From: Candidatus Saccharimonadota bacterium
Lineage (GTDB): Bacteria; Patescibacteriota; Saccharimonadia; CAILAD01; GCA-016700035
Direction of reading: 5' to 3'
DNA: 61,511 nucleotides
NCBI GenBank assembly: GCA_046350755.1
Contig: JAXLZV010000003.1
Location: 1 to 61,511, forward strand
A model generated the notes under the pieces. The model was not told where the DNA came from. It saw only the letters and a list, made by a program, of their open reading frames with translations, and made no database searches. Positions 31,448 to 61,511 of the stretch are shown here, in pieces. The number at the start of each line of letters is the position of its first letter. The first letter of the stretch is position 1. A program made the position numbers and the translations under genes.

Positions 31448-33007
31448 ATGAATCCTGAATCCACCCCATCTAAATACTGGCTAGCCCAACTCCTTGACCT
31501 GATTACTGAACGCAAGTCAGCCGGTCGAGTTGTTGTGGCCTCAGGCATTACCCCGTCGGGGCCGTATCATGTCGGGCATTCGCGCGAGATTTTGACGGCC
31601 GAGGCAATCCGCCGTGGTCTTGAGACGCGTGGGCGTGAGGCGCTTCATATTCATAATGTCGATGATTTTGACGCCCTAAGAAAGCGCTACGATTATCTAC
31701 CGGAGCGCTTTGAGACTGAGGTTGGCAAGCCGGTTTATCTCGTGCCTTCACCGACTGATGATGGTTTGAGCTATGCGGATCACTTTTTTAACAGTTATGC
31801 GGCAGCTGCTGAGAAGTTAGCGATTCCTATGGAGATTTGGCGCTCGCACGAGGAATATCAGCGCGGGGTATTTGCCGACGCAATTGTGACCGCTTTAGAG
31901 CGTCGGGATGATATCGCCCGGCTGCTACAATTGATCTCCAGCCGTGAAGTGCCTGCGGACTGGCAGCCGGTGCAGGTTCTCGATGTGACGACCAGTAGCT
32001 TGCGAACCGCCGAGTTTTTACGTTTCGATGCAAGTAGTCGGTCGGTTGAATATCGGGCCGGAGATGGTTCGGTGCATCAGGCCGATATCACAGCTGGACA
32101 GGTTAAGCTCGATTGGCGAGTTGATTGGCCAGCACGTTGGGCCATTCTCGGGGTAGATGTCGAAGGTTTCGGCAAAGAGCATGCCACGAAGGGTGGTAGC
32201 TATGATACGGGAGCGGCGATAGTGCGAGAAATATTCCAGGCTGAGCCACCGATTCCTGTACCCTTTAATCCCATCCATCTGCACGGTGAGACGAAAAAGA
32301 TGAGCTCTTCTTTAGGTAACCTGATCACGATTGAAGATGCCCTCGAGGTTATTCCTCCCGACATTCTGCGCTATTTTGTGTTTAAGAGTTTGCCGAATAA
32401 AGTCCTGAGTTTCGACCCGGGCTTGGGTATGGCGCAGCTGATTGATGAGTATGCGGCTACTGAGACGGCGGCTCAGGCTGGAGAGCCGGCCGAGTTTGCG
32501 GAAGCATGGGCAGTATCGGTCCTGGATGCCGCACACGCGACGGTTTCGACGGTACCTTTCACCCATCTAGCGACGGTATATCAGACGGCTCGAGGTGATG
32601 TCGGGCGGGTACTCAGCTTGCTGCGGGGAACTCATCCGGGGGCGGTTGATACACAAGCTAGCGTGATTGAACGCGAGCTTGTGTATCTCGAGCGCTGGCT
32701 GCAGCAATTTGCTCCCGACTCAATCAAATTTGAAATTCAAGATGCACTGCCTGCTTGCGAGCTTGATAGTGACGAGCAACGTTACGGCGACGAGCTGGCC
32801 AATCGGCTCGAGCAGACAGCTTGGGAGGGTGAAGCGCTACAGGTGGTTATTTTTGCGACTGCTCAGGCGCAAGGATTAGCACCGCGGACTGCCTTCAAGA
32901 CGCTCTATCGACTGTTTCTTGATCGTGAGGCTGGTCCTAAGCTGGGGCCATTTCTGGCTAGTCTTGAGCCAGAATTTGTGATTCGGCGCATCCGTCGACT
33001 TGGCTAG
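31448..33007 (+). CDS. lysS: Lysine--tRNA ligase, class I
   Basis: SGITPSGPYHVGH (HIGH-like), KLDWRVDWPARW, GKEHATKGGS, KMSSSLGN, GPKLGPF. Confidence 0.95.
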   Translation: MNPESTPSKYWLAQLLDLITERKSAGRVVVASGITPSGPYHVGHSREILTAEAIRRGLETRGREALHIHNVDDFDALRKRYDYLPERFETEVGKPVYLVPSPTDDGLSYADHFFNSYAAAAEKLAIPMEIWRSHEEYQRGVFADAIVTALERRDDIARLLQLISSREVPADWQPVQVLDVTTSSLRTAEFLRFDASSRSVEYRAGDGSVHQADITAGQVKLDWRVDWPARWAILGVDVEGFGKEHATKGGSYDTGAAIVREIFQAEPPIPVPFNPIHLHGETKKMSSSLGNLITIEDALEVIPPDILRYFVFKSLPNKVLSFDPGLGMAQLIDEYAATETAAQAGEPAEFAEAWAVSVLDAAHATVSTVPFTHLATVYQTARGDVGRVLSLLRGTHPGAVDTQASVIERELVYLERWLQQFAPDSIKFEIQDALPACELDSDEQRYGDELANRLEQTAWEGEALQVVIFATAQAQGLAPRTAFKTLYRLFLDREAGPKLGPFLASLEPEFVIRRIRRLG

Positions 33008-33025: not shown

Positions 33026-34252
33026 ATGATAAATTTACAGTTTCTACGCGAGAATCCTGATGTGGTTCGTGAATCAATCTTGCGTCGTGGTATGAAGGTC
33101 GATCTTGATCGATGGTTAGTTCTTGATGCGCGCCGGGCTGAACTGATTCCTGAAGTCGAGGCGGCACGGTCAAAGTTTAAGCTCAAGGGTAAGCCGAACC
33201 CCGAAGAGTTAGAAGCATTACAGATAGCCAAGACTCAGTTGGCCGAGCATGAAGAAGAGCTGAGTTATGTTGAGGCCGAGTGGCAGCGCTTACTCGAGGA
33301 TTTACCGAATATCATTGCCGACGGTACGCCGGACGGAGGCGAGGAAGCGAATCGCGAAGAGCGCAAAGGTGGTGTCCAGCCGAGCTTTGACTTTCAACCA
33401 AAGGATCATCTGGAGCTCAATGACCAGTTGAGATTTGTAGATTTTGAGTCAGGCGCAAAAGTAGCCGGTAGCCGTTTCTACTATTTGCGCGGCCCAGGAG
33501 TGAGACTTTGGGACGCCATACTGACCTTAGCTAAGCAGGTACTCACTGAGCATGGTTTTGAGCTACTGTATGTCCCGCATATGGTGAATAGCCGGGTAGC
33601 TGCCGGGACCGGATTTTTGCCGCGTGGGGAAGAGCGCCAAATCTACAAAACTGAAGATGTCGATTTGAATCTTATTGCCACGGCCGAGCTACCATTGACC
33701 GGCCTCTATATGGACTCGGAAGTAGACGTCACAGAGCCGACTAAGTTGGCAGCAGTGAGCCCGTGCTACCGGATGGAAGCCGGCACGTATGGTAAGTTTT
33801 CAAAGGGTCTCTATCGAGTGCATCAGTTTGAAAAGCTCGAGATGTATGTCTATGCGCAGCCGGGGCAGGGCGAGTCGATTCTGGAGCAGATTTTGGCGGT
33901 TGAGGAGGAGCTCTGTGAGCGACTGGAGATCCCTTATCGTGTCGTTCGTATCGCTGCCGGTGATCTGTCGGCACCAGCTTATAAAAAATACGACGTCGAG
34001 TATTGGAGTCCGGTGGATCAGAGCTATAAAGAGCTGACGAGCTGTAGTGATTGCACTGATTATCAGGCGCGACGCCTGAATGTTCGCGCTCGGGCCGAGG
34101 ATGGCACTTTGACCTATCCTCATACGCTGAATGGCACTGCCGTCACCTCGAGTCGTACGCTCATCGCGATTCTTGAGAATCATCAGACGGCTGAGGGTCG
34201 CGTGAAGTTACCAGCCGCATTAGCCGAAATTTATGGAGGAGAATTTTTATGA
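33026..34252 (+). CDS. serS: Serine--tRNA ligase
   Basis: N-terminal coiled arm, LIATAELP, YRMEAG..GLYRVHQFEK, ELTSCSDCTDYQARRL, HTLNGT. Confidence 0.97.
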   Translation: MINLQFLRENPDVVRESILRRGMKVDLDRWLVLDARRAELIPEVEAARSKFKLKGKPNPEELEALQIAKTQLAEHEEELSYVEAEWQRLLEDLPNIIADGTPDGGEEANREERKGGVQPSFDFQPKDHLELNDQLRFVDFESGAKVAGSRFYYLRGPGVRLWDAILTLAKQVLTEHGFELLYVPHMVNSRVAAGTGFLPRGEERQIYKTEDVDLNLIATAELPLTGLYMDSEVDVTEPTKLAAVSPCYRMEAGTYGKFSKGLYRVHQFEKLEMYVYAQPGQGESILEQILAVEEELCERLEIPYRVVRIAAGDLSAPAYKKYDVEYWSPVDQSYKELTSCSDCTDYQARRLNVRARAEDGTLTYPHTLNGTAVTSSRTLIAILENHQTAEGRVKLPAALAEIYGGEFL

Positions 34253-34605
34253 TTAAACACACTATTACCGCTCGCAAATTAGAAGTTGATCAGGAGCTCA
34301 AAGAATACATCGAGCGCAAACTCGGTCGACTTGATAAATATTTCCCACGTACCCATCAGCCGGAGTCGATGCGGGTTGAGCTCCATCGCGACGAAGCGGC
34401 CGAGCCGGATAAGCGCTATCACGTTACGGCGCAAATTTCCGTTAGCGGACCAGATTTGCAGGCTGAAACGGCTACCATTAATCCGCATAGTGCAGTCGAC
34501 ATCATCGAAGCCAAGCTCAAGGACAAGATTCGCAAATATAAGGCGAAGCATTCACCGCGCCGTTTCACGCTCAAGCGTGAAACTCCCCAACCGCAAGAAG
34601 ATTGA
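34249..34605 (+). CDS. hpf: Ribosome hibernation factor HPF/RaiA (short form)
   Basis: LKEYIERKLGRLDKYF, HSAVDIIEAKLKDKIRKYK. Confidence 0.9.
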   Translation: MIKHTITARKLEVDQELKEYIERKLGRLDKYFPRTHQPESMRVELHRDEAAEPDKRYHVTAQISVSGPDLQAETATINPHSAVDIIEAKLKDKIRKYKAKHSPRRFTLKRETPQPQED

Positions 34606-34691
34606 CGCATTCTGTAGCCTGGAGTATATTCTGGGTATTCTGAACAAACCTGTTCGATGTACCCAGAATCTTCTACCCCCAGGAGAAAATC

Positions 34692-35111
34692 ATGGCACTT
34701 GTACGAGCTACTTGTGATAGTTGTGGTGATGTCGAGCTCAAGTCTCACGACATCTGGACGAATCGCATTACCGATGGAGCAGTCACGATCCTGCGTCAGT
34801 ATGGCTTCCAATGCCCGGCTTGCCGCCAGTTCACTTTGCGGCCAGCTGATGAGCATGTCATCAGTGTTCTCCGTGCGACCGGCGTGGTGATGCGCGAGAT
34901 TGATGCGCGGTCAGTTTGGCCGACCGGTGTCGACCTGGCAGCTAGCCCGTTCAATCATGATGATTTGCTCGAATTCCATCGCCGACTGTGGGGGAGTTTT
35001 GAGAATTATCCCCCCCATAACTCTCCGGTCATGGATGAGGCTGCCGCCGATTTGGATTCGATAGCACTCAAGCGTGGCTTGGCTCGGATTCGGAGAGCCT
35101 TTGTTAGCTAG
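34692..35111 (+). CDS. Hypothetical zinc-ribbon protein (CxxC...CxxC)
   Basis: RATCDSCGDVEL...FQCPAC...HDDLLEFH; TTGACG-N17-TATATT promoter, AGGAG SD. Confidence 0.8.
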   Translation: MALVRATCDSCGDVELKSHDIWTNRITDGAVTILRQYGFQCPACRQFTLRPADEHVISVLRATGVVMREIDARSVWPTGVDLAASPFNHDDLLEFHRRLWGSFENYPPHNSPVMDEAAADLDSIALKRGLARIRRAFVS

Positions 35112-35130
35112 GTCAGTCAATCGCTGATGG

Positions 35131-35162
35131 CCCGCCCTTATATAGGGGGCGGGATTTTTTTG
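35131..35162 (+). terminator. Intrinsic terminator
   Basis: CCCGCCCT-TATAT-AGGGGGCGGG followed by a T-run. Confidence 0.75.
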
Positions 35163-35186
35163 TATCTGGTATAATAATCAGGTTAT

Positions 35187-37811
35187 ATGGCAAATCTTTT
35201 TCAGAAAATTTTTGGTGATCCCAATGAGCGCGAGGTAAAAAAAGCTCGCGTGCGGGTTGAGCGTATCAACGCTCTAGAAGCCGAGATCAAAGCACTATCT
35301 GATAAGGACCTCAAGGCTGAGACCGCAACACTCAAGGCCGAACTTTCAGCCGGTAAGAAGCTTGATGACGTACTTGAGCGCGCTTTTGCAGTTGTCCGCG
35401 AAACTAGTCGACGCGTCCTGAAAATGCGTCATTTTGACGTTCAGCTGATCGGTGGGATCGTGTTGCATGAAGGTAAGATCGCCGAAATGAAAACCGGTGA
35501 AGGTAAGACACTAGTTGCCACTGCCCCGGTTTACCTCAATGCCCTAACAGGCAATGGGGTGCACGTGATTAGTGTGAATGATTACCTAGTACGTCGTGAT
35601 GCCGGCTGGATGGCGCAAATATACCATTTTCTTGGCTTGACAACTGGTATTATTACTCATGAATCGGCGTTTATTTATGATCCTACGTATGTCAATGAGG
35701 AGCATACTGATGTCCGGCTGCGTCACCTGAAGCCAGTGACGCGTCGCGAGGCGTACCAAGCTGACATCACCTACGGGACAAATAATGAGTTTGGCTTTGA
35801 TTACCTGCGCGACAACATGGTGCAGGACATTGATCAAATGGTCCAACGCGAGTTATCGTTTGCGATAGTCGACGAAGTTGACTCAATTCTGATTGACGAA
35901 GCCCGTACGCCGCTGATTATTTCGCAGCCCCATGCTAAGTCGACCGACCGCTACTATACGTTTGCCAAGATTGCGAAGAGCCTGGTGCCGGGCGAGGATT
36001 ACGAGCTGGACGAGAAGCAAAAAGCCGTTAGTATCTCGGAAGACGGCATTACAAAGATTGAGAAAGCCCTCGGTGTAGATAACGTCTATGAAGCGGGTCG
36101 TATCGAGGATGTACATCATATTGAATCGGCTTTGAAGGCTGAGGCGGTTTTTCTCAAAGATCGTGATTATGTTGTGACGCCCGACGGCGAGATCGTTATT
36201 GTTGATGAGTTTACCGGTCGTCTCCTACCGGGTCGTCGCTATAGCGAGGGTTTGCACCAGGCAATTGAGGCAAAGGAAGGCGTACAAATTCAGCAAGAGA
36301 GTCAGACGCTGGCAACGATCTCGTTTCAAAATCTCTTCCGACTTTACACTAAGCTAGCCGGTATGACGGGTACCGCCGCCACTGAAGCTGAGGAATTTGG
36401 CAAAATTTATAAACTCGAAGTAACTACCATCCCGACTCATCAGCCGATGATTCGGCAGGATTTGCCAGATCGCGTGTATAAGACACTGAAAGGTAAGTTT
36501 ACGGCCGTGGTGGAAGATGTGCGCGAGCGCCATGAGAAGGGCCAGCCAGTGCTGTTGGGAACCGTTTCAATCGAGAAAAATGAGTTGCTCTCTCGTATGC
36601 TTACCCAAGCCGGAGTCAAACACACCGTCTTAAATGCCAAGAATAATGAAGCTGAGGCCGACATTGTTGCGGCGGCGGGTCAAAAAGGTGCCGTCACCTT
36701 AGCGACTAACATCGCCGGTCGTGGTACGGACATTGTGCTGGGTGAAGGTGTGACCGAAGTTGGTGGCCTGCATGTGATTGGTACAGAACGTCATGAGAGC
36801 CGTCGAATCGACAATCAGCTGCGAGGTCGGGCAGGACGACAGGGCGATCCAGGATCGAGCCAATTCTACGTATCGATGGAAGACGATCTGATGCGTATCT
36901 TTGGGAGTGAGCGGTTGAGCTCGATGATGGACAGCTTAGGTTTGCCGGAAGACACGCCGATTGAGAATAGTATGGTGAGTCGGTCGCTCGAATCAGCTCA
37001 GAAGAAGGTCGAAGGGCACAACTTCGATACCCGTAAACACTTGGTCGATTATGACGACGTCATGAACCAGCACCGCGAGATTATTTACGCCCGTCGTCGA
37101 GCGATTCTCAAACAAGATTCGTTGAAGGATGATCTTATGCCACTGTTTGAGGCCGAATTCCGGGGTGCTATCACCGCTGCCACCGACGTCCAGACCGAAC
37201 ACTTAGATCTGGATAAACTGGCAGATCAGATTCGAACCGTCATCCCGCTCGATAGAGATTGGGTGAAGCAGCAAGACCGACGCGATGCTGATCATCTGGT
37301 GGATAGGTTTATGAAGCAGGCTGAGGAGATGTACCGCCAGCGCACGATGGAGTTTGGCGATGATGGCATGATGGTGATCGAGCGCCTGGTGAGCCTCAAG
37401 ACGATTGATTCGGCTTGGCTCGAGCACCTTGAGGCGATGGATCACCTCCGTGACGGCATTGGTCTGCGGGGCTATGGTCAGCGTGATCCATTGGTTGAAT
37501 ATAAGCAGGAAGCATTCCGAATGTTTGGTATGCTTCAGGCACGGATTGATAGTGAAATCGTTCATACTCTCTTTAAGGTGAAACTCGAGCTGAATGCTCC
37601 GAGTGAAGCGCCGATTGAGACCGAAATAACGCGCGGTGCTGATCGAGCGATTGCCTCCGGACCGAGTGAGTCAGGGGCAATTGAGACTGAGAAAGCGGTT
37701 GCTAAGGCTAAGCGTCAAGCCGAACGTTCTGGCCATGAGGCGGGTCCGATTCATCGGGTTGGTAGTCAGTCGGTCAAGAAAAAGATGAAGAAAAAGAAAA
37801 AGCGCCGCTAA
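35187..37811 (+). CDS. secA: Preprotein translocase ATPase SecA
   Basis: [49 protein letters not shown]. Confidence 0.98.
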
Positions 37812-37831
37812 AGCTGGTTTCGTAACGTATG

Positions 37832-37859
37832 AATATCCTCCAACTGGAGGATATTTTTG
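37832..37859 (+). terminator. Intrinsic terminator of secA
   Basis: AATATCCTCC-AACT-GGAGGATATT followed by TTT. Confidence 0.8.
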
Positions 37860-37884
37860 TGTGCTATCTGGTATCATAAGGGGA

Positions 37885-40683
37885 ATGAATAGTGAAGCAC
37901 CACGCATTGATCAGGATTTTCCACCAGCCGCCGGCGAGGCCGCTCGACAACTCAGAAAAACATTAGCCGAGATTGCACTGGTCAAGATGCAGCTTGAGTC
38001 TGCCCTTAAGAAAGAACGCAATCCGGCTCGACGCGAGCAAGTGGCGGCCAGTACCGAAGCCAAGCTGACCGAGCTGAACCAGGCGAGACAAGACGCTTTG
38101 GTAGCCATGCGTGAAGGGCTGGAGGAAGTACCCGAGCATGCGTCCCCAGAAGTGCCTCGTGATCAGGTGGGCATAGAGCTCCCCGCGACTGAGGATCCCT
38201 ACAGGCTGGCTGGTCAGCCGCTACCGCGCATCGTGCAGACTCTCCAAGCGACGAAGGGTTGGGCGGGAGTTGAAAATCGCATTAATCGTCACTATGGCTC
38301 GTCCGGCACCGGTATAACCGCTGAGGATTACGTTCAAGAGCTGGCTCGCCAGATACAATCGGGTATGCGGCCGCTCGATGGCCAGATATGGCAAGATGTA
38401 TACGATCGATATGATAGCCAGGGGCAGGTAATTGCAGAGCCACAGCCGGACTTGCCGTCAGTAAGCGTAAGCGGTTATGATAAGCACGATACACAACCTA
38501 GGAGTGACGGAATGCCCAACCCAGAACACAACCCATCAGAGCCGCCGGCTCAAAATCATCAGGAGGCGGTGGCTGATGATCTTGAGGAAATCTTAGCTCA
38601 GCAGGGTGGCTACCAGCCGCGGTATGAGGCTCATGTGCCGCGCAGTCCACTCGAGCAAGCCCATCAGCCGGAAGCTTCGGCTAGTCAATCACGTGGTTAT
38701 AACGCACGAGCTACGGAATTTGCTCGTCAACGACCCGAATCGCAACAAGCTGTGCCCCGAGCTACGGCAGAGCCAGAAGCTCAACCTGCCGCTGAGCGCG
38801 TCACGGCGGCTGAAACTGAGGCTTTCGAGCGTTCGAGTACAGCCGAGTTTGGCGGTCAGTCGTTTGAACGGGGTGATCGGATAGTTTATGAATCTGATTC
38901 AGGGCGGATAGCCGAGTACTATGTCTTATGTAACTCGTTTGGTGATCCTCCGGGCCTCGTTGTTCAATCGACCACTAATGAGTCGATGGTGTTTGCTATC
39001 GGTGGTGATACTGAAGCCGGACGGGTCCGTCGAGTCCTCGGTGCCCCTGGCGAAGACGAGCCAGGTCCACCGAGTGGCGGTGGTGCTGGTCCGGGTGAAG
39101 GTGAACCAGGCGAAGGCCCCGGTGAACGTCGACGGCCGGGTGGAGAGCAATTTGTCCCAGAAAATCTACTCGAGAGAATTCCGCGCATACCAAATCGCGA
39201 GGAGATGCTCGCCGCGGGTGATGTGATGCGCGGGATGCTGGACCAACGGATTCAGGACGTTGCCCAGGCCAAAGAGCAGCGCGAGAAGTTATTTGGTAAG
39301 TTTGGCGATAAGGCGGCCTTGGCTGAAGCGGCCGAGGATTTAGGCGCAGCTTATAATCAATATCTTGAGAATTGGGCGTCACAACTAGCAACCTATCGCA
39401 ATATCGGCAATGAAATTTCGACGACGAAATCAGGTTTTCAAAACGAGCTTCAGTCGCGGCGCGAATCTCTCGAACGCCTTCAGGCCGATCAAGATCTCGA
39501 TCCCGCAATCAAGGAAGATCGTATTCGCGTTAAGCAAGCTGCGATTCGCGATACGGAAGCTGCTATCGACGAGTGTGACACTCGTCTAGCTCAGTTTGAG
39601 GAGTCGAAGGAGCTGATTGAGCGGGTCACGCGTGAAGTTGAGATTCAGATCACCCTCGAACTCGCTCAAGCCCGTACGAAGATAGAAACTGCCCAGGCCG
39701 AGCTCAAGGAAGGCAATAAGGTTCAGCGTGCGATCAAATGGGCGAAGGACGCTTGGCGTAAACATCCAAAGACTCGTCTAGCAATAACCGTAGGTCTTGG
39801 TGTCGCGTCGTTAGCTACTGGTTTCGCTGGTTTCGCCGTGGCGGCGGCTGGGATGCGCGCGGTTGGCGCTGGAGTTGGTACCGAGCTAGGTGTGAATACT
39901 CGAAGGCAGTGGTGGGCCAATCGCAGTGAGTCCAAGGGTGCCGAAAAAGCTTGGGGCCAGACTGATGAAGCTACTCGCACGGAAGCGGAAGCGGTTGGTG
40001 GCTGGGTCGGTGAAACTACCCCTGATCTGAGTCAGCAGGCCAAAACTGACCTTGAACTTTTCCAGCAGCGCCATGGTCGCGAAATCTACAGCGAAGATAT
40101 GATTTTGAAGGTCTTGCGGGGCGACCCAGACGCCTCGGCTGAGGTTGCAACGATGTTGGTGAGTGATCAGATCGGTGAAAAGGGGCGTGTCCAGAAGGAT
40201 GCCTCATCAAATCGACGGGCCAAAGTCGCGGCGGTAGCCGCCGCGACAACCGTTGGGCTGTTTGGGCTCTATCGCTCAGTAGGTTCGTCGGGACGCGCTA
40301 CGGACAGCATGGAGAGTAATGTTCGGCCCAAACCACCAACGGCTGATTATGATCCGAATGCCGACCGCTGGTATGGAATGGCCAAAGTGAATCCAAATAC
40401 GATGAACGCTGACTGGGAGGCTATGCACGCGGGAGCCACTCCGGCAGCTGAAGCCGCCGCCCACGTCGGTGAAGGCGCTCTCGACACCGCCTACAATTCG
40501 GCTTCGGAAGGCATGAATCTTGCCCAATTACGTCAACTCAATCAGATCATTGGTACTGGAGCGCGAACTATTGGCAATGATCGCGTGGCCGAGCTGATGC
40601 CAGGAATCGCCCGCCAGGTCGTCAACGGACGCTCAACGGATCAGATCTTAAGTCTATATGGCATACCGCCAACGGCAGCCTAA
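37885..40683 (+). CDS. Large orphan protein (about 930 aa) with coiled coils and Gly/Ala-rich hydrophobic segments
   Basis: Long uninterrupted ORF; TATCAT 7 nt before ATG 37885; heptad-rich region then LAITVGLGVASLATGFAGFAVAAAG. Confidence 0.85.
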   Translation: MNSEAPRIDQDFPPAAGEAARQLRKTLAEIALVKMQLESALKKERNPARREQVAASTEAKLTELNQARQDALVAMREGLEEVPEHASPEVPRDQVGIELPATEDPYRLAGQPLPRIVQTLQATKGWAGVENRINRHYGSSGTGITAEDYVQELARQIQSGMRPLDGQIWQDVYDRYDSQGQVIAEPQPDLPSVSVSGYDKHDTQPRSDGMPNPEHNPSEPPAQNHQEAVADDLEEILAQQGGYQPRYEAHVPRSPLEQAHQPEASASQSRGYNARATEFARQRPESQQAVPRATAEPEAQPAAERVTAAETEAFERSSTAEFGGQSFERGDRIVYESDSGRIAEYYVLCNSFGDPPGLVVQSTTNESMVFAIGGDTEAGRVRRVLGAPGEDEPGPPSGGGAGPGEGEPGEGPGERRRPGGEQFVPENLLERIPRIPNREEMLAAGDVMRGMLDQRIQDVAQAKEQREKLFGKFGDKAALAEAAEDLGAAYNQYLENWASQLATYRNIGNEISTTKSGFQNELQSRRESLERLQADQDLDPAIKEDRIRVKQAAIRDTEAAIDECDTRLAQFEESKELIERVTREVEIQITLELAQARTKIETAQAELKEGNKVQRAIKWAKDAWRKHPKTRLAITVGLGVASLATGFAGFAVAAAGMRAVGAGVGTELGVNTRRQWWANRSESKGAEKAWGQTDEATRTEAEAVGGWVGETTPDLSQQAKTDLELFQQRHGREIYSEDMILKVLRGDPDASAEVATMLVSDQIGEKGRVQKDASSNRRAKVAAVAAATTVGLFGLYRSVGSSGRATDSMESNVRPKPPTADYDPNADRWYGMAKVNPNTMNADWEAMHAGATPAAEAAAHVGEGALDTAYNSASEGMNLAQLRQLNQIIGTGARTIGNDRVAELMPGIARQVVNGRSTDQILSLYGIPPTAA

Positions 40684-40698
40684 TAATAAGGAGTAATT

Positions 40699-41040
40699 AT
40701 GGATACCACTCAACCTCAAACCCAAGCTGATATTTTCACACGTCTAGGCATGGCTTCGGCCAGCGATGAACAGAAGCAAAAGCTGGCTGAACAACTCGCC
40801 GAGCTCACGATGGTGCGCGTTATGGAGAAAGTCTCGAGTACCATCCCCGAAGAGACGATGGACGAAATTGAGGCCCTGATTGATAAGGGAGCCGATGATC
40901 AGGTAGAGGATCGACTGCGTCAGGCGATTCCTGGCTATGATGAACTAGTCCAAACGACCGCCAGTGAAGTGGCCGATCAGATCGTAGCTGACCAGCAAGC
41001 GGTGCTGGCTAAAGTGCGCTCTCAGACGACCTCGGCCTAG
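40699..41040 (+). CDS. Small acidic helical protein, DUF5663-like
   Basis: DIFTRLGMAS.SDEQKQKLAEQL...RVMEKVS...IPGYDELV pattern recalled from CPR DUF5663 proteins; AAGGAG SD. Confidence 0.7.
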   Translation: MDTTQPQTQADIFTRLGMASASDEQKQKLAEQLAELTMVRVMEKVSSTIPEETMDEIEALIDKGADDQVEDRLRQAIPGYDELVQTTASEVADQIVADQQAVLAKVRSQTTSA

Positions 41041-41130
41041 TCAGTAACCAGTAAGTTAGATTGACTTTACCCTGAAAAAATGGTAAAGTTTTTCTGTTTT
41101 TCCTGCACCTTCCAACCTTAGGAGGCCCAT

Positions 41131-42324
41131 ATGGGCAGTACTCATTCAGCCAAGAAAGGCATCACTGATCCCGCCGATCTCACAGCCGCGCTGGCGGCCG
41201 CGCAGGTGAGCAGCAATGGCGCCAGCCCACCGGTCACCGCCAACCAGACTGCCTCAAGCTTGTCTGGAGGAGACGAGCCGGCCGTCATGGCTACCGAAGC
41301 AGTCGCTCCCCGGAAGCGGGTTGGCGATGTCATTGATGCCTTGCATGTTGCCGGCATTCTGCCGCCGGATGATGACGGCATTGGTTTTATCCAGTCGATC
41401 TACCGCACGTTGAATCTGATCAAGTTGGACCAACCACTGCCCAAGATCAACCGCGGTACCTTGGTTCGGCCAGCCATCATCACTCACGTCGATCTGCTAC
41501 TGGCACAGGGCCACGCTTCGGCCACAACGCCAGTCGCGACGGCTGCATCTTCAGCTCAGACTCCGCGGATCAAGCAGCACGCTCAGTTTGCGGAGTTGAC
41601 ACCAGAGCTGCAGCAGCTGGTGCTGCTGGCTGATGAGGCGCGTGGCCGCCATCAGATGGTGGTCGCCCTGCAAGGTAAGCCTGGAGATGACAATGATGAG
41701 CTCTATCATCAGGAGTCTGCCGACGCGTTTCAGGCGGTTTCTGATCAGATGCGAGCAATTGCGAGCATGATCCCCGGTATCACGCCGCGCTACTTGGCTA
41801 GCTGGTTGCGACGAGTCGGTGTGTATTTCGAAGCAGTTATCAAGTCTGACGAGGACTTGGTGACAGCCGTGAGCACGCTGCGCTGGCCGAAGGCACGACC
41901 TGAAGCAACAGCGGTACCGGTATCGACGCCCCCATCTGCGTCAGCTCCGGCTGAGGTGGAACCTGCAGTTGCTGAACCAAGCGACCGAGCCTTCGTGGTG
42001 ACGTCGACTGGTGGGGTCACCGAGCCTGCGCGTCATCGAGTGACGAGCGGGGCGAGGCGAGTAGCAGCCAGTCAGCCGACAGTCGAGACGCAAGCGGTGA
42101 GCCAGGAATCAGCTGATTCCGAGCAAGAGTTGGTTGAGCCGACTGCCAGTGAATTCACCGACCAGCAGCTCATTGAGCTGGTGGGCGGCGATGAGGTCGA
42201 TCAACTCTTCGACGCGATCTACCAACGCTATGGCTGGGACTCTCCTGACATGGACGCAGTTGAGGCCGAAGTACGGTCTCTGTTGATTGCTCGAGCCCGC
42301 GAACTGAGTGTGTCGCCGGCGTAA
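41131..42324 (+). CDS. Orphan hypothetical protein with low-complexity linkers
   Basis: 397-aa ORF; TTGACT-N17-TAAAGT promoter, AGGAGG SD, downstream hairpin. Confidence 0.8.
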   Translation: MGSTHSAKKGITDPADLTAALAAAQVSSNGASPPVTANQTASSLSGGDEPAVMATEAVAPRKRVGDVIDALHVAGILPPDDDGIGFIQSIYRTLNLIKLDQPLPKINRGTLVRPAIITHVDLLLAQGHASATTPVATAASSAQTPRIKQHAQFAELTPELQQLVLLADEARGRHQMVVALQGKPGDDNDELYHQESADAFQAVSDQMRAIASMIPGITPRYLASWLRRVGVYFEAVIKSDEDLVTAVSTLRWPKARPEATAVPVSTPPSASAPAEVEPAVAEPSDRAFVVTSTGGVTEPARHRVTSGARRVAASQPTVETQAVSQESADSEQELVEPTASEFTDQQLIELVGGDEVDQLFDAIYQRYGWDSPDMDAVEAEVRSLLIARARELSVSPA

Positions 42325-42330
42325 ACGATC

Positions 42331-42363
42331 GGGGTGGTTTGGATCTATTTCCAAGCCACCCTT
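42331..42363 (+). terminator. Hairpin after the 41131 orphan
   Basis: GGGGTGGTTTGGA-TCTATT-TCCAAGCCACCCT. Confidence 0.6.
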
Positions 42364-42483
42364 ATTCATTGGTGCGCATGTATGGCATAAGTTTATTGAC
42401 AAGCTATAAAAGTATTGCAAAATATACATTTTTATGCTATAGTGCGCGCAGTACCTTCATTCCTCAACAGAAAGGGGATCGGC

Positions 42484-43209
42484 ATGGCCGACCTCACGCA
42501 ACGCAACAACGCCGCTCGCCACCGTGAGCACGATCGCAAGCATCGGCTGCTCAACGAGCAGTACGAGCTGGTCACTGGTCAGGTCACCGACCTCCAGGGA
42601 CGGATCACACGGCTCGAGCAGGCTGGCGCCTCCGATGAGACGCTGGCCGGCATGCGTCAGGAGCTCGAGCGCTTGCTCGGGATCCAGACCAGCTTCGGCA
42701 ATCAGCTGACCGAGTTCTCGACCCAGTTGGCTTCGGTCGACGGTCGCGTCTCGTCACTCGAGCGCTGGAAGCCGCATGTCAACGAGCGGCTCGAAGCCGT
42801 CGAGGTGAGCAGCAATGCCCACGCCACGGCGATCGCTCGGCTGAGTGACGCCAATGGCTGGGTGCCCATCGCTGCCGCCGCGGTGGCTGGTCTCATCACC
42901 TACGTGGTGATCGAGGTCTTCCACGACACCGCCACCCACATCCAGTGGGCTTGGGTGTTGGTCTTGGCCGCGGTGGCTGGCATCGTTGCCAGCTTCTTGG
43001 CCGGTTCGGCGACCAGCCGGGCCTCGGCCTCCAGCCAGGCTTCGGCCACCGTCGGCACTGCGCCGGCTCCGGCCGACCAGGCTCCGGCTGAGCCGCCCAC
43101 GGCGACCGTTCCGGTTGCCGATGCTCAGCCGCCTGCGCCACCCATGCCGGCACCAGTTCCTTCTCGCAGGAACGTCAGTGCCAGTGCGGCCGCTCAGGTC
43201 AACGGCTGA
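42484..43209 (+). CDS. Orphan coiled-coil + 2-TM membrane protein, GC-rich
   Basis: TTGCAA-N17-TATAGT promoter, AAAGGGG SD, ATG 42484; heptads, two TMs, Pro/Ala tail. Confidence 0.8.
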   Translation: MADLTQRNNAARHREHDRKHRLLNEQYELVTGQVTDLQGRITRLEQAGASDETLAGMRQELERLLGIQTSFGNQLTEFSTQLASVDGRVSSLERWKPHVNERLEAVEVSSNAHATAIARLSDANGWVPIAAAAVAGLITYVVIEVFHDTATHIQWAWVLVLAAVAGIVASFLAGSATSRASASSQASATVGTAPAPADQAPAEPPTATVPVADAQPPAPPMPAPVPSRRNVSASAAAQVNG

Positions 43210-43218
43210 TCATCCCTC

Positions 43219-43248
43219 GTGTTTGGGGGTCTTCGGACCCCCAAACAC
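43219..43248 (+). terminator. Perfect 13-bp hairpin with C(UUCG)G loop and no U-tail
   Basis: GTGTTTGGGGGTC-TTCG-GACCCCCAAACAC. Confidence 0.7.
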
Positions 43249-43303
43249 ATCATTCTAGCTTTTGGTATTATTCTGATGACGATTCTTCGCCGTCAGAACC
43301 CGT

Positions 43304-44497
43304 ACCTGAACACCGCCGCAATCCCGCGGCCCGTCCATGAAAGGGGGCCGCCATGCGCGCGCCCAACTCTCCGCAGCAGAAGTTCTTCTTCTCGCTGCTC
43401 GGGGCGGCAGCTCTGCTGCTGATCACCCCAACCCTCTACCATCGTCTGGTGGATGACGACCCGGCTTCGGCCAGTCCCACCACCACGACGACTGCCGCCC
43501 CGGCTCCGGCCGGAACCTGCGGCAGCTCTCCCTGGTTCTACGCCCGGGACACGGAAGGTAACCAGTTCGGTCCCGCCGCTCCGGAAGAGGTGAATGCCGC
43601 CCAGGCGGAGTTCACCAAGCGCCGTTGCGTCGATCCGGCCCTGCTGGTCGCCGACTCGGAGTATCTCTTCAACGAGTTCTCCGATCCGACTGCCCGCGTC
43701 GCCAAGACGCAGGACTTCATCGCCAATCCCGACCACTGGGCCCTCAGTGAGCTGCGCTTCCAGCAGAAGCTCGGGACGGCCACGAAGGTCGAGGTGGCGA
43801 CGATGTCTGGCGGGTACCAGACCATGGACATGGTGGATCGGGATCGTTCGATCCCGGAGATCTACCAGATCCCGGTCGAAGCCGCACCCTTCCGGGTGCT
43901 GCGGTACACCTTCCCCGATGGATCGGTGAAGAACTTCAAGCTCAATTGTGGCTTCCAGCCCGTTGAGCAGTCCTTCCCGCCCAGCGTGCCCGGCAAGGGA
44001 GCTCCTCCGGCGCCCAACCAGCCGGCTGGACCGGTCACACCGTCCCGGCCCGGTGGCCACAGGCCGCCGACGCCGCCGGTGGGACCCACGGTTCCGCCCA
44101 CTCCTGGCAAGTGCGCCAATCAGCAGGGTCAGTACTGTGGTACTCCCGACTCCGGACCGGAATTCGATCCGGTTCAGTCGAACCCGCAGTCGCCCACGCC
44201 GGGCTATGTCCCGGGGAATGCCGAGACGGTGATCAATCAGCAGCAGAACGATGCTGCGATCACTGCTGGAGGTGGCGATCCCTATCGCCCAACCCAGTAC
44301 GGCACCCCCGGTACCGGCACTGGCTCCGGAGTGACGACCCCCTCGGGTCAGACCTCCGGTCCGACCGGCAACACCACTGGTGGGACGGTCGGGGCTTCCA
44401 ACCCCGACAACAACACCAATACGGCTGGCCAGACCAGCTCGGGTACGGTGGCACCGCCTCCGTAACCCATGCCTGATCGCTCTCGCGGTGTTCAGGT
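43304..44497. repeat. 13-bp perfect inverted repeat bracketing the 43353-44465 gene
   Basis: ACCTGAACACCGC (43304-43316) and GCGGTGTTCAGGT (44485-44497). Confidence 0.85.
43353..44465 (+). CDS. Orphan secreted/anchored protein with Cys-containing domain and Pro/Gly/Thr-rich tail, GC-rich
   Basis: N-terminal hydrophobic segment, PTTTTT linker, five Cys, AAAGGGGG SD. Confidence 0.82.
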   Translation: MRAPNSPQQKFFFSLLGAAALLLITPTLYHRLVDDDPASASPTTTTTAAPAPAGTCGSSPWFYARDTEGNQFGPAAPEEVNAAQAEFTKRRCVDPALLVADSEYLFNEFSDPTARVAKTQDFIANPDHWALSELRFQQKLGTATKVEVATMSGGYQTMDMVDRDRSIPEIYQIPVEAAPFRVLRYTFPDGSVKNFKLNCGFQPVEQSFPPSVPGKGAPPAPNQPAGPVTPSRPGGHRPPTPPVGPTVPPTPGKCANQQGQYCGTPDSGPEFDPVQSNPQSPTPGYVPGNAETVINQQQNDAAITAGGGDPYRPTQYGTPGTGTGSGVTTPSGQTSGPTGNTTGGTVGASNPDNNTNTAGQTSSGTVAPPP

Positions 44498-44502
44498 CAA
44501 CA

Positions 44503-44532
44503 GCCCTCGGGGCGCTTCGGCGCTCCGAGGGC
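44503..44532 (+). terminator. 13-bp hairpin with C(UUCG)G loop
   Basis: GCCCTCGGGGCGC-TTCG-GCGCTCCGAGGGC. Confidence 0.7.
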
Positions 44533-44748
44533 AACCTCATTTACTGACCAAAATAAAACCATAAGCAATACCATTGACAAACCACAACAAATCTGATACA
44601 ATACAGCAGTCATTCACACCAGGTGTGGAGTCGCTACTTAACAGCTCAAATAGTCTTCCCAACAGAAGCAAGCAATTCTTGACGAAAGCTTAAAACTATC
44701 CAATAACCATAAGTATTATTCCTCACCAAGTGAGAGAAGGAGCAAGCT

Positions 44749-45912
44749 ATGAAGTTTGTCGCCAAACTCCGCACACTTGCCGCTGCTGCAGCCCTGGTAC
44801 TCGTACCAGCCGCCGCCGCCGCTACTGGCCAAGTTGCGATCGAAGCCCGCACCGCAGTTGCTAACCAAACTGCCGGCGATACGGTCTATCAAAAAGCCGT
44901 AAATGCCAAAACCGACGAAGTCGTAAAAGTCCAAGTCTGGTATCACAACAAAGAAGAGGCTAACTCGAATAAAGTAGCCAATAACCTCAAAGTCAAAATT
45001 GACCTGCCAACTACTACTGGCAAAAGCCAGGTAGTGAAGGGTACGGTCAGCGCCGATAACAGTAATACTGTTGTCGACACCGCTAACGTCAACCTTGCCC
45101 TCGACCAGAGCCGACTCGAGTATATCCCAGGCTCAGCTCAGTGGCGCCACAACACTGGTACCAATGAAGCTCCAAACTGGGTAACCGAGAAGATCAGCGA
45201 CCAAGTCGTTGGTACGGGTATTACTCTTGGTAACGAGAAGCCTTGCTTTAACTTTGAAGCTAACGTAACCGTTCTAGCCCGTGTCAAAACTCCTGCAGTT
45301 TCGATCACGAAGCAGGTTCGGGTGCTTGGCGAAAAAGATTGGAAGACTGAAAACACCGCCAAAGCCGGTGACACGCTCGAGTACTTGATCTCGTTCAAAA
45401 ACGAAGGTAACACTACGCTGAACAACGTTATCATTGCTGATAACATGCCAGCTAACGTCACCTACGTACCAGGTACTACCATGATAAAAAATGGTGCGAA
45501 CCCAAATGGTACTAAGATTAACTCGGACAATATCACCAAAGGTGGCGTGAATGTAGGTAACTACACACCAGGTGCCAACGGTTACGTATGGTTCCAGGCT
45601 AAGATTGACTCAAATCTCAAGCCAGGTAACTACACTTTCAAAAACGTTGGTATCGTGAAGCCTGAAGGTATGGGCGAGTACTTTAACGCCGCTCAGACTA
45701 AGGTTAGCGTGGCCGGTCCTACAACCGTCCCACCAACCACTCCTGTGACTCCAACTACCCCAACCACTCCAACTACCCCTGCCCTTCCGCAGACTGGTGT
45801 TGAAGCTGGTGCAGCTGGCCTCATGGGTACAGGTGCCCTGACCTACGCTGGTTACTTCTACCGGAAGAGCCGCAAGGGTCTGACCGAAGCTCTCAAAAAC
45901 GTTGTTAAGTAA
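44749..45912 (+). CDS. Cell-surface protein with Ig-like DUF11-type domains and LPXTG-like sorting signal
   Basis: Signal peptide; SITKQV...AKAGDTLEYLISFKNEG...IIADNMPANVTYVPGT; LPQTG + hydrophobic stretch + RKSRK; AGAAGGAG SD. Confidence 0.88.
   Translation: MKFVAKLRTLAAAAALVLVPAAAAATGQVAIEARTAVANQTAGDTVYQKAVNAKTDEVVKVQVWYHNKEEANSNKVANNLKVKIDLPTTTGKSQVVKGTVSADNSNTVVDTANVNLALDQSRLEYIPGSAQWRHNTGTNEAPNWVTEKISDQVVGTGITLGNEKPCFNFEANVTVLARVKTPAVSITKQVRVLGEKDWKTENTAKAGDTLEYLISFKNEGNTTLNNVIIADNMPANVTYVPGTTMIKNGANPNGTKINSDNITKGGVNVGNYTPGANGYVWFQAKIDSNLKPGNYTFKNVGIVKPEGMGEYFNAAQTKVSVAGPTTVPPTTPVTPTTPTTPTTPALPQTGVEAGAAGLMGTGALTYAGYFYRKSRKGLTEALKNVVK
45730..45780 (+). repeat. Degenerate 9-bp tandem repeat encoding Pro-Thr-Thr stalk
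   Basis: CCAACCACT/CCAACTACC units giving PPTTPVTPTTPTTPTTP. Confidence 0.8.
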
Positions 45913-45930
45913 CGTTTGAGCGATCACCAC

Positions 45931-45964
45931 AAACTCCCCAAGGGATTTCCCGAGGGGAGTTTTG
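45931..45964 (+). terminator. Intrinsic terminator of the surface-protein gene
   Basis: AAACTCCCC...GGGGAGTTTTT. Confidence 0.75.
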
Positions 45965-46003
45965 GTATCTGGAAAGAGATCTTGCAGGTATAATGAGAAA
46001 CGT

Positions 46004-47086
46004 ATGAAGCCGACGATTGATACATTATCGCGTTTACTCGCCGAAGTCCGCGAGGCCAAAGCCCAGCTCCAGCTCGATGACGAGCGGGGGCGGCTTCAAG
46101 TGCTCGAAGACCAGATTGCCGCTCCAGATTTCTGGAATGATGCGGAAACCGCGCAGAAAATCAGCCAGGACGCCGCTCAGCTCCGGAATTATCTAGCTGA
46201 TTGGGATAAGCTTGAGGACGAGCTGACAACAAATCTAGAGCTAGCGGAGATGTCAGACGAGTCGCAGGCTGATGAATTTACTGAACTCACGACCGATCTG
46301 GAGTCCCGAGTGGCCGCCGCTATGATCACCGTGAAGCTCTCGGGAGCGCATGATAAGCTGCCGGCGATTATGCAGCTGTCAGCGGGAGTTGGCGGTACGG
46401 ATGCCCAGGATTGGGCCGAGATGCTGCTGGCGATGTACACTCGGGCGGCCGAGAAGCTTAGCCTCAAAGCCGAACTCGTTGATATCTCGCGCGGTGAAGA
46501 AGCCGGTATAAAGTCGGCCACCCTTGAGTTCACTGGGCCTTTTGCTTTTGGCAAGCTCAAGAGTGAAAAGGGTGTGCATCGGTTAGTCCGACTGTCGCCA
46601 TTTAATAGCGATAATCTCCGTCAAACCAGTTTTGCCCTGGTGGATGTAGTGCCAGAGATCCCAATGGAAGAAATTGAGCTGGACGAAAAAGACTTGCGGG
46701 TTGATGTCTATCGCTCCGGCGGGCACGGGGGACAGAGCGTCAATACCACTGATTCGGCGGTGCGGATTACGCATCTTCCGACCGGCACCGTTGTAGCGAT
46801 TCAGAATGAACGCTCGCAGTTGAAGAATAAGCAAAAAGCCATGAGTATTTTGGCGGCTCGCTTGGCCGAATTGGCGCGTGAACAGCATCTGGAGTCGGTT
46901 GCGGAATTACGTGGCCAGGTAAAGTCTGCCGATTGGGGTGCCCAAATTCGCTCTTATGTCTTGCACCCCTACCAGAAAGTGAAGGATCACCGCACGGACT
47001 ACGAAACCAGCGATACCGATGGTGTCCTGGCTGGCGAGATCGAACCGTTTATCGAAGCATATCTTACCAAAAATCTGAGTCAATAA
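46004..47086 (+). CDS. prfB: Peptide chain release factor 2 (no programmed frameshift)
   Basis: GVGGTDAQDWAEML, GVHRLVRLSPF (SPF), [27 protein letters not shown]. Confidence 0.97.
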   Translation: MKPTIDTLSRLLAEVREAKAQLQLDDERGRLQVLEDQIAAPDFWNDAETAQKISQDAAQLRNYLADWDKLEDELTTNLELAEMSDESQADEFTELTTDLESRVAAAMITVKLSGAHDKLPAIMQLSAGVGGTDAQDWAEMLLAMYTRAAEKLSLKAELVDISRGEEAGIKSATLEFTGPFAFGKLKSEKGVHRLVRLSPFNSDNLRQTSFALVDVVPEIPMEEIELDEKDLRVDVYRSGGHGGQSVNTTDSAVRITHLPTGTVVAIQNERSQLKNKQKAMSILAARLAELAREQHLESVAELRGQVKSADWGAQIRSYVLHPYQKVKDHRTDYETSDTDGVLAGEIEPFIEAYLTKNLSQ

Positions 47087-61119: not shown

Positions 61120-61511
61120 GCCGGCTCAGGCAGATAGTTACGCTTTGGGGCGGCCGGGCTTTGGCTAGGGCTCGGAGTTTTAGATTCGGTTGGCTTACCG
61201 AAGCCAAAAAAACTTTTTACTTGATCGAAGAATGAAGGGGCATTGCCCGGCAGGGCGGCCTTGGTGTCGTTAGCAGTGATGGCCACAGCAGCTTTATCTT
61301 CCGGTTTGACCGGTGATGGTTGAATCTGGTTGGCAGTAATGATCAGCCGCTTCCAGCTTGTTCCTGGAGGTGTACAGGTGATCAGCGTTAGAATTGGCTG
61401 AGTGGTTGGCTGCAGGACGGATATCTCGGTTGGCTCAACGACCTTTGAGCCAGCCACTTGGTAGACATATTTGCGCTTTTGATAATTGATTTGAATCTGG
61501 TCACCGGGGGC
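61116..61511 (-). CDS. Sortase, C-terminal part (5' end beyond window)
   Basis: Frame open to the window edge (APGDQIQINYQKRKYVYQV), LTLITCTPPGTSWKRLII = TLxTC...R catalytic motif. Confidence 0.9.
   Translation of the reverse strand, partial: APGDQIQINYQKRKYVYQVAGSKVVEPTEISVLQPTTQPILTLITCTPPGTSWKRLIITANQIQPSPVKPEDKAAVAITANDTKAALPGNAPSFFDQVKSFFGFGKPTESKTPSPSQSPAAPKRNYLPEPA

Follow-up and report, generated by a model that had tools for sequence, protein, structure and literature searches.

The window analysed here, 61,511 nucleotides of contig JAXLZV010000003.1 from a Candidatus Saccharimonadota bacterium (assembly GCA_046350755.1, our G000; 921,564 bases, 98% complete), carries on its forward strand a gene for a large protein, here called BIG, and directly after it a gene for a small protein of the Pfam family DUF5663. 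The open reading frame (ORF) of BIG runs from 37861 to 40683 and encodes 940 residues if read from its GTG; the ATG at 37885, which has AAGGGGA just 5' of it, gives 932. A first-pass annotation, made from the letters alone, had put the length at 930 residues and needs correction on this point, the rest of its description of the protein being borne out; the database protein P0001, 99% identical to BIG, begins at the earlier GTG. The small gene, as that annotation had seen, starts 15 nt downstream with its own Shine-Dalgarno sequence (AAGGAG) and encodes an acidic protein (isoelectric point 4.18). Both genes have conserved relatives, and are thus real genes rather than chance ORFs. BIG is a new protein family without detectable relatives of known function or fold, and its pairing with DUF5663 is conserved in every genome found to match the core of the protein.

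This conservation was traced with the BIG profile in 201 genomes of the class. Matches occur in 35 of them: 30 over the core of the protein (from the stalk to the second hydrophobic helix), three to a β-rich module only, within giant ORFs, and two weakly, to the coil only. In all 30 core-match genomes a DUF5663-type ORF lies directly downstream on the same strand, recognized in 28 by PF18908 and in two (G001, G004) by phmmer with the small protein of the window; the two genomes with coil-only matches have no DUF5663 gene nearby. The adjacency spans at least five families. The common gene order is serS-hpf-secA-(BIG)-DUF5663-...-p370-DUF11-prfB, with secA upstream within the fetched stretch in 22 of the 28 relatives' genomes fetched. 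In G037 and G056, the pair is kept beside acyltransferase-like membrane genes and secA is not nearby; in G077 and G122, infB/rbfA lie on one side of it and fmt/def on the other; and in G084, which belongs to another family, BIG and DUF5663 are followed by a membrane protein with two hydrophobic helices (2TM), a p370 homologue (E 9e-14) and a DUF11 homologue (E 2.3e-35), beside two-component genes. As the pair stays together where its neighbours change, it forms a unit, and so, probably, does the whole envelope block (BIG, DUF5663, 2TM, p370, DUF11). A Sec-related role, which the neighbouring secA might suggest, was rejected: in Southlakia epibionticum, hpf-secA...prfB encloses genes of another kind, for insulinase and a hypothetical protein together with murD and htpX (supplementary tables of Wang et al., 2023; PMC10633639), and the pair also occurs away from secA.

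The same data bear on the view that the two genes are mere neighbours, DUF5663 being a general housekeeping protein of the Candidate Phyla Radiation (CPR), either a chaperone or translation-associated, with no specific tie to BIG. In its favour are the occurrence of DUF5663 in many CPR phyla and near infB/rbfA/fmt where no large membrane gene is present, the listing of DUF5663 genes as 'core' and 'Patescibacteria enriched' (PMC10633639, Table S1), and the weak co-folding support described below. Against it stand the adjacency in 30 of 30 genomes from at least five families, which persists in changed surroundings; the existence of a distinct DUF5663 subfamily that follows BIG, besides a second subtype that precedes giant proteins; and co-folding controls of 0.00. 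We regard it as unlikely.

Table 1. Features of the BIG locus, in window coordinates.
Feature	Position	Strand	Remarks
Terminator-like hairpin	37831..37859	+	11-bp stem, 4-nt loop, then T-run; between the secA stop (37811) and BIG
BIG, large protein	37885..40683	+	932 residues from ATG; alternative GTG 37861 gives 940
Conserved N-terminal region, residues ~103-185	38191..38439	+	common to family members (alignment)
Small β-rich module, residues ~291-393	38755..39063	+	also in 'giant' membrane proteins of 1400-1700 residues; absent in some BIG homologues
Three long helices, residues 438-609	39196..39711	+	AlphaFold2; predicted cytoplasmic
Gly/Ala-rich hydrophobic stretch, residues 631-665	39775..39879	+	read as re-entrant or two-pass hairpin
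Helical mid-domain, residues 666-780	39880..40224	+	AlphaFold2, pLDDT mostly 78-91; between both hydrophobic elements
Second hydrophobic helix, residues 781-797	40225..40275	+	conserved basic motif before it
Pro-rich linker	40276..40350	+	disordered in model, pLDDT <50; alignment
C-terminal six-helix domain, ~110 residues	40351..40680	+	predicted outside the membrane
Acidic helical protein, 113 residues	40699..41040	+	DUF5663 (PF18908) member, candidate partner
397-residue protein	41131..42324	+	no family; promoter-like site at 41061-41089
264-residue protein	42415..43209	+	coiled coil, then two hydrophobic helices; similarly built proteins at same place in relatives
370-residue protein (p370)	43353..44465	+	N-terminal anchor or signal, Pro/Gly/Thr-rich tail; conserved next to pair
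387-residue DUF11-repeat surface protein	44749..45912	+	LPQTG, hydrophobic helix, basic tail; sortase-substrate layout; conserved next to pair

Searches with BIG against Pfam, NCBIfam and PADLOC returned coiled-coil noise at most and no family match; four isolated sub-regions gave no useful match in Pfam at E up to 10, and no PHROGs family was matched at E ≤ 0.01. The last result speaks against BIG being a phage tape-measure or other phage protein, and a prophage or defence-island reading was rejected for the lack of PHROGs and of meaningful PADLOC matches together with the fixed place of the gene between housekeeping genes. Relatives are few: a word-indexed search of 5.8 billion clusters found three, and a search of 1.84 billion representative proteins found 17 representatives at E ≤ 0.001. 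Among named genome records, a scan with the single BIG sequence found no relative; an alignment query found seven related loci, six of them in metagenome-assembled genomes labelled 'uncultured Candidatus Saccharibacteria'. Judged by these sequences, the pair of BIG and DUF5663 is, among the relatives found, a lineage-specific trait of Saccharibacteria only. The family is defined here by a three-helix stalk, a Gly/Ala-rich hairpin, a mid-domain, a basic motif with a second hydrophobic helix, and a DUF5663 gene directly 3'; the protein of the window has all of these and matches the family profile with E 9.3e-228, being itself part of the underlying alignment.

The layout of BIG can be described from the sequence and, for residues 430-932, from an AlphaFold2 model of these 503 residues, built with 19 relatives (mean predicted local distance difference test score, pLDDT, 78.9); the N-terminal 430 residues lie outside this model. 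It is in BIG, too, that the Pro/Glu/Gly stretches and the β-rich segment of the first-pass annotation are found. The N-terminal region is matched by the proteins P0013 and P0004 (BIG residues 1-231 and 9-194, respectively). The β-rich segment aligns to the giants over 68 columns (hhalign, probability 96.7%, E 3.7e-10), is the sole part that BIG has in common with them, and is absent from the homologue P0002 in the alignment; by these comparisons it is a shuffled module. The long coiled coil proposed earlier appears in the model as three long helices (438-467, 476-534 and 540-609), mostly with pLDDT above 90, followed by a short Lys/Trp-rich helix. The Gly/Ala-rich hydrophobic strings quoted in the annotation fall into the two hydrophobic stretches of the protein, residues 630-665 (Kyte-Doolittle peak 1.77) and 781-799 (peak 1.44), whose Gly+Ala fraction of 0.37-0.65 lies above the 0.35 that marks the 95th percentile among 1644 hydrophobic segments from the ORFs of the same genome. 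In relatives, the first stretch comprises 35-44 residues with a central Gly/Pro, and the Gly/Tyr/Met motif that follows it is conserved in all 19 sequences; the second sits inside a long helix in the model. The C-terminal domain, modelled alone, reaches a pLDDT of 84.8 and a predicted template-modelling score of 0.77. A minimal form of the family, P0017 (255 residues), consists only of the hairpin, the second helix and this domain.

Structure searches found no known fold for the modelled parts. The C-terminal domain gave a best Foldseek E of 2.6 and a best VIA Z of 4.8, without a fold match; the 503-residue model gave generic long-helix matches only in Foldseek and VIA-wide (best Z 10.8); profile searches of the PDB with the family alignment and with the C-terminal domain found nothing significant; and scores in the ESM Atlas for residues 430-932 were 0.77 or less. 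It is conceivable, and in our estimate improbable, that the Gly-rich hairpins of several BIG copies come together in the manner of Gly-zippers and form a channel across the membrane of the epibiont itself, for instance for uptake or release at the contact with the host, gated by the stalk and DUF5663. The Gly-rich hairpin followed by the conserved Gly/Tyr/Met motif, the retention of just hairpin, second helix and C-terminal domain in P0017, and the essentiality of a probably equivalent gene in S. epibionticum (tables of PMC10633639) would agree with a channel; the isolated region, however, matches no Gly-zipper family in Pfam at E up to 10, and the hairpin is modelled at low confidence.

The charges that flank the hydrophobic segments offer a guide to topology, as positive residues tend to remain on the inner side of the membrane (the positive-inside rule). 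All 19 aligned sequences have 3-6 Lys/Arg before the first hydrophobic stretch and 2-5 after it, and all 19 have 4-7 Lys/Arg in the 15 residues before the second helix. This pattern suggests that the N-terminus and the mid-domain lie inside, that the first stretch forms a re-entrant or two-pass hairpin, and that the second helix crosses the membrane and leaves the C-terminal domain outside; given a short second helix and a poor hairpin model, this topology remains inferred. No window of 19 residues exceeds a Kyte-Doolittle average of 1.2 before residue 630, and BIG therefore has no N-terminal signal peptide, just as the annotation had stated. In overall build, the protein resembles bitopic envelope scaffolds of Gram-positive bacteria such as MapZ, RodZ and EzrA, which combine a large disordered or coiled-coil cytoplasmic part with a membrane anchor and a small domain on the outside; the likeness is one of description, no homology having been detected, and BIG differs in its additional Gly/Ala hairpin and its dedicated small partner.

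The layout had originally been taken as that of a translocator or α-pore-forming protein, with BIG exported without a signal peptide, its Gly/Ala hairpin inserting into the membrane of the host bacterium, and DUF5663 acting as a cytoplasmic chaperone that keeps the hydrophobic parts soluble. Type III translocators with class II chaperones, of the IpaB/IpgC type, do unite a coiled coil with a hydrophobic hairpin and have a small acidic partner encoded alongside, and BIG is alike in these three respects; it differs in that its genome has no match to the type III marker FHIPEP (PF00771; the control matched in 4 of 14 genomes) and that its partner belongs to DUF5663, not to the tetratricopeptide repeat (TPR) proteins. 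Translocators of the IpaB/SipB/YopB type were not among the matches listed by the PDB profile search, Foldseek or VIA-wide, the model searched being that of residues 430-932. Like the ClyA family (ClyA, Hbl L1, AhlC), BIG has, by its model, a long bundle of helices that adjoins a hydrophobic helical part; none of the matches reaches significance (Hbl L1 with E 0.14, from the PDB profile search; AhlC, E 1.0, probability 0.30, and ClyA, E 1.9, TM-scores of 0.13-0.17, in Foldseek), and they lie amid generic helical hairpins, HlyD, LipC and SMC among them.

The genome of the window has no match to WXG100 (PF06013) or to VirB4 (PF03135), and the single ORF over the cut-off for the FtsK/EssC type (PF01580), of 729 residues, is of the FtsK type; a type VII (WXG100/LXG) substrate is not indicated, as neither WXG100 proteins nor a multi-domain EssC-type ATPase were found. 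Four ORFs of 687-898 residues match AAA_10 (PF12846) below the threshold and, from sequence, may mark a divergent type IV system; the type IV system of Saccharibacteria is described as unusual, divergent and essential and as possibly exporting proteins (PMC10633639). Taken together, an effector would be in keeping with the missing signal peptide, with hydrophobic segments that are moderately hydrophobic and richer in Gly/Ala than the genome's 95th percentile, with a small acidic partner that is always adjacent, with the faint resemblances to Hbl L1, AhlC and ClyA, with the AAA_10 matches, and with a variable N-terminus built of shuffled modules. Set against these are the absence of any significant sequence or fold match to translocators or α-pore-formers, the lack of FHIPEP, WXG100 and PF03135 in the genome, a partner that is not a TPR-type chaperone, flanking charges that follow the positive-inside rule throughout the family and a second helix that leads into a Pro-rich linker, which fit ordinary insertion into the cell's own membrane by a resident protein, and the fixed chromosomal place that the pair has, in several families, between genes of housekeeping and envelope functions. 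An effector is thus not supported; the moderate, Gly/Ala-rich hydrophobicity and the AAA_10 matches leave it some room, and we consider it distinctly unlikely.

The small protein is a member of DUF5663, a family without known function: it scores 29.5 bits against a curated gathering cut-off of 23.7 (E 1.1e-6, profile positions 4-82 of 84), a result repeated in a scan of the whole genome, its only other Pfam matches being two below threshold, neither of them TPR, and its neighbours by feature and by structure in the Atlas are DUF5663 clusters. The copies that adjoin BIG form a mutually alignable subfamily of their own, with weaker Pfam scores, for which a PDB profile search found nothing significant; a literature search on DUF5663 found no mention. 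In S. epibionticum, the published structural annotation of DUF5663 paralogues gives helical chaperone folds, like the C-terminal domain of trigger factor or like LTXXQ (Spy, CpxP) proteins (PMC10633639, Table S2), and by analogy with these a chaperone-like role of the small protein is plausible; for the paralogue next to the large gene, SEML1_0162, that table reports no such hit. A canonical trigger factor is encoded elsewhere in the genome of the window. Other subtypes of DUF5663 occur in other settings. The top-scoring PF18908 copies (L033:4603-4938 and L046:5049-5372) lie between infB (or infB and rbfA) and fmt/def, where no large membrane gene is present, which hints at a different, possibly translation-linked role for this subtype. 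A further subtype lies directly upstream of the giants of relatives (L003:4181-5280, L016:6320-11001, L030:4270-9487, L031:4124-8926 and L032:3476-8683), which have 1400-1700 residues, Gly-rich hydrophobic helices and no Pfam match; the upstream ORF matches PF18908 in G010 and G031, and the one in G034, which has no Pfam match, was assigned to DUF5663 by its similar sequence end. No giant protein was found in the genome of the window.

Binding of the two proteins was probed by co-folding residues 430-932 of BIG with the small protein, in three runs with three controls, as the first-pass annotation had proposed. The runs scored 0.57, 0.48 and 0.33 (median 0.48) and the best control 0.00, which amounts to weak support; the pLDDT of the partner was 69 or higher, and the runs had 57% or more of their contacts in common. 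For calibration, the co-folding mark is reached by 116 of 157 solved complexes and by 2 of 215 mismatched pairs; with scores no higher than 0.60, only 18 of the solved complexes reach it, as do both mismatches. No interface was returned.

A probably equivalent pair is found in S. epibionticum ML1, for which genetic data exist. According to Tables S1 and S2 of Wang et al. (2023; PMC10633639), the genes there run infB-SEML1_0161-SEML1_0162-SEML1_0163-fmt; SEML1_0161 encodes a hypothetical protein of 767 residues without a Pfam match and with only a helical DPAM hit, SEML1_0162 (DUF5663, E 4.3e-7) begins 13 nt after it, and SEML1_0163 is a second DUF5663 gene (E 4.4e-17). As in the window, a large protein without a Pfam match is followed by a DUF5663 gene, the place being after infB instead of secA. 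The BIG profile matches the ORF that takes this place, downstream of infB and upstream of fmt/def, in G077 (E 1.6e-9) and in G122 (E 1.8e-15); for this reason, and because of size, layout and the 13-nt spacing, SEML1_0161/0162 is probably the equivalent of the BIG/DUF5663 pair. Transposon sequencing in the same tables classifies SEML1_0161 as GD/ES/ES, with 99 insertions in the input DNA and then 12, 0 and 0, and SEML1_0162 likewise as GD/ES/ES; SEML1_0163 is NE/GD/GD and a third paralogue, 0221, NE. The main text, as available under PMC10633639, mentions none of these locus tags.

The location of BIG is most likely the cell's own envelope. The explanation that we favour, and to which we give an even chance, is that it resides in the membrane of its own cell as a protein specific to this lineage, with its stalk in the cytoplasm and a small domain towards the wall, and is served by a dedicated DUF5663 partner within a conserved surface-protein module. 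BIG would be an integral protein of the epibiont's own cytoplasmic membrane, whose first ~630 residues, comprising helical and disordered acidic stretches, the optional β-module and the three-helix stalk that ends in the Lys/Trp-rich helix, would be cytoplasmic; the hairpin of 35-44 residues would dip into the membrane or cross it and return, leaving the helical mid-domain in the cytoplasm; and the short second helix would cross the membrane, the Pro-rich linker placing the helical domain of ~110 residues in the wall zone. The DUF5663 protein would be a dedicated cytoplasmic partner, most likely a holdase or assembly factor that binds the helical and hydrophobic C-terminal half of BIG. The pair shares its module with genes for a coiled-coil membrane protein with two hydrophobic helices, an exported protein rich in Pro and a DUF11 surface protein of the sortase type, and would probably provide a membrane platform for building or organizing the cell surface.

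Several observations weigh against this explanation or parts of it. The hairpin region is poorly modelled (pLDDT 31-60), and the second hydrophobic helix, with 15-17 residues in the family and a Kyte-Doolittle value of 1.44, is short and of moderate hydrophobicity for a segment that should place the C-terminus outside. Co-folding returned no interface and gave weak support; a profile comparison of the DUF5663 subfamily with 20 Trigger_C domains of relatives found nothing (hhalign, probability 0.5%, E 0.11); and DUF5663 is far wider than the pair, occurring beside infB/rbfA or a P-type ATPase and across CPR phyla. The close relatives G002, G003 and G006, 96-99% complete, have no BIG match in the profile search, so that the protein is not universally required, and the probable equivalence of SEML1_0161 to BIG is judged from layout and synteny only. 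Lastly, no known family or fold matches BIG.

Like other CPR bacteria, Saccharibacteria live on the surface of bacterial hosts, and for most envelope proteins of these organisms no function is known. BIG adds a family that is tied to the pan-CPR DUF5663 and lies inside a conserved surface-protein gene module, and the function of the pair would give DUF5663 its first functional context. The probably equivalent pair is called essential in one cultivated, genetically tractable relative, S. epibionticum (tables of PMC10633639), where its function is thus directly testable; no discussion of it was found in the literature searched. A bolder proposal would make the pair an essential, Saccharibacteria-only device at the interface of epibiont and host, in which DUF5663 holds BIG until the Gly/Ala hairpins form a pore or conduit, in the host membrane or bridging the two cells, with the surface proteins as parts of the same apparatus. 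Such a pore or conduit would give the epibiont access to host resources; we rate this proposal as improbable.

Expression of the pair is touched on by metatranscriptomes: four runs, which come from two studies, yielded short contigs over parts of each gene, with carry-over of DNA as a possible source; in these four runs, no contig bridges the junction of BIG and DUF5663 by 31 nt on each side. One contig (run X17) has an extra T in the 15-nt spacer, at window position 40696, and the other runs contain many synonymous-looking differences, from related strains in wastewater and sludge samples. Upstream of BIG, the hairpin that follows secA looks, by its sequence, like a terminator (minimum free energy -23.9 kcal/mol, z -2.4), though it was not listed by the consensus terminator scan.

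In the window, the hpf-secA...prfB frame (33026-47086) encloses an envelope insert of ~8 kb (BIG, DUF5663, p397, p264, p370 and DUF11-LPQTG), whose GC content is 0.56-0.63, compared with about 0.51 elsewhere. Three sortases are encoded in the genome, one as a fragment at the window end (61329-61508) and two elsewhere, in keeping with a wall of the Gram-positive type. An Arg/Gly-rich ORF of 415 residues on the reverse strand (43293-44540), antisense to the 370-residue gene in a GC-rich stretch, is most likely a chance ORF. An ORF of 139 residues located between hpf and secA (34692-35111) has two Cys-x-x-Cys pairs and looks by eye like a zinc ribbon; it has no Pfam match, and phmmer found none in the fetched loci of relatives. 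Further upstream, the lysyl-tRNA synthetase (31448-33007) has the look of a class I enzyme, with HxGH and KMSSS recognizable by eye in its translation.

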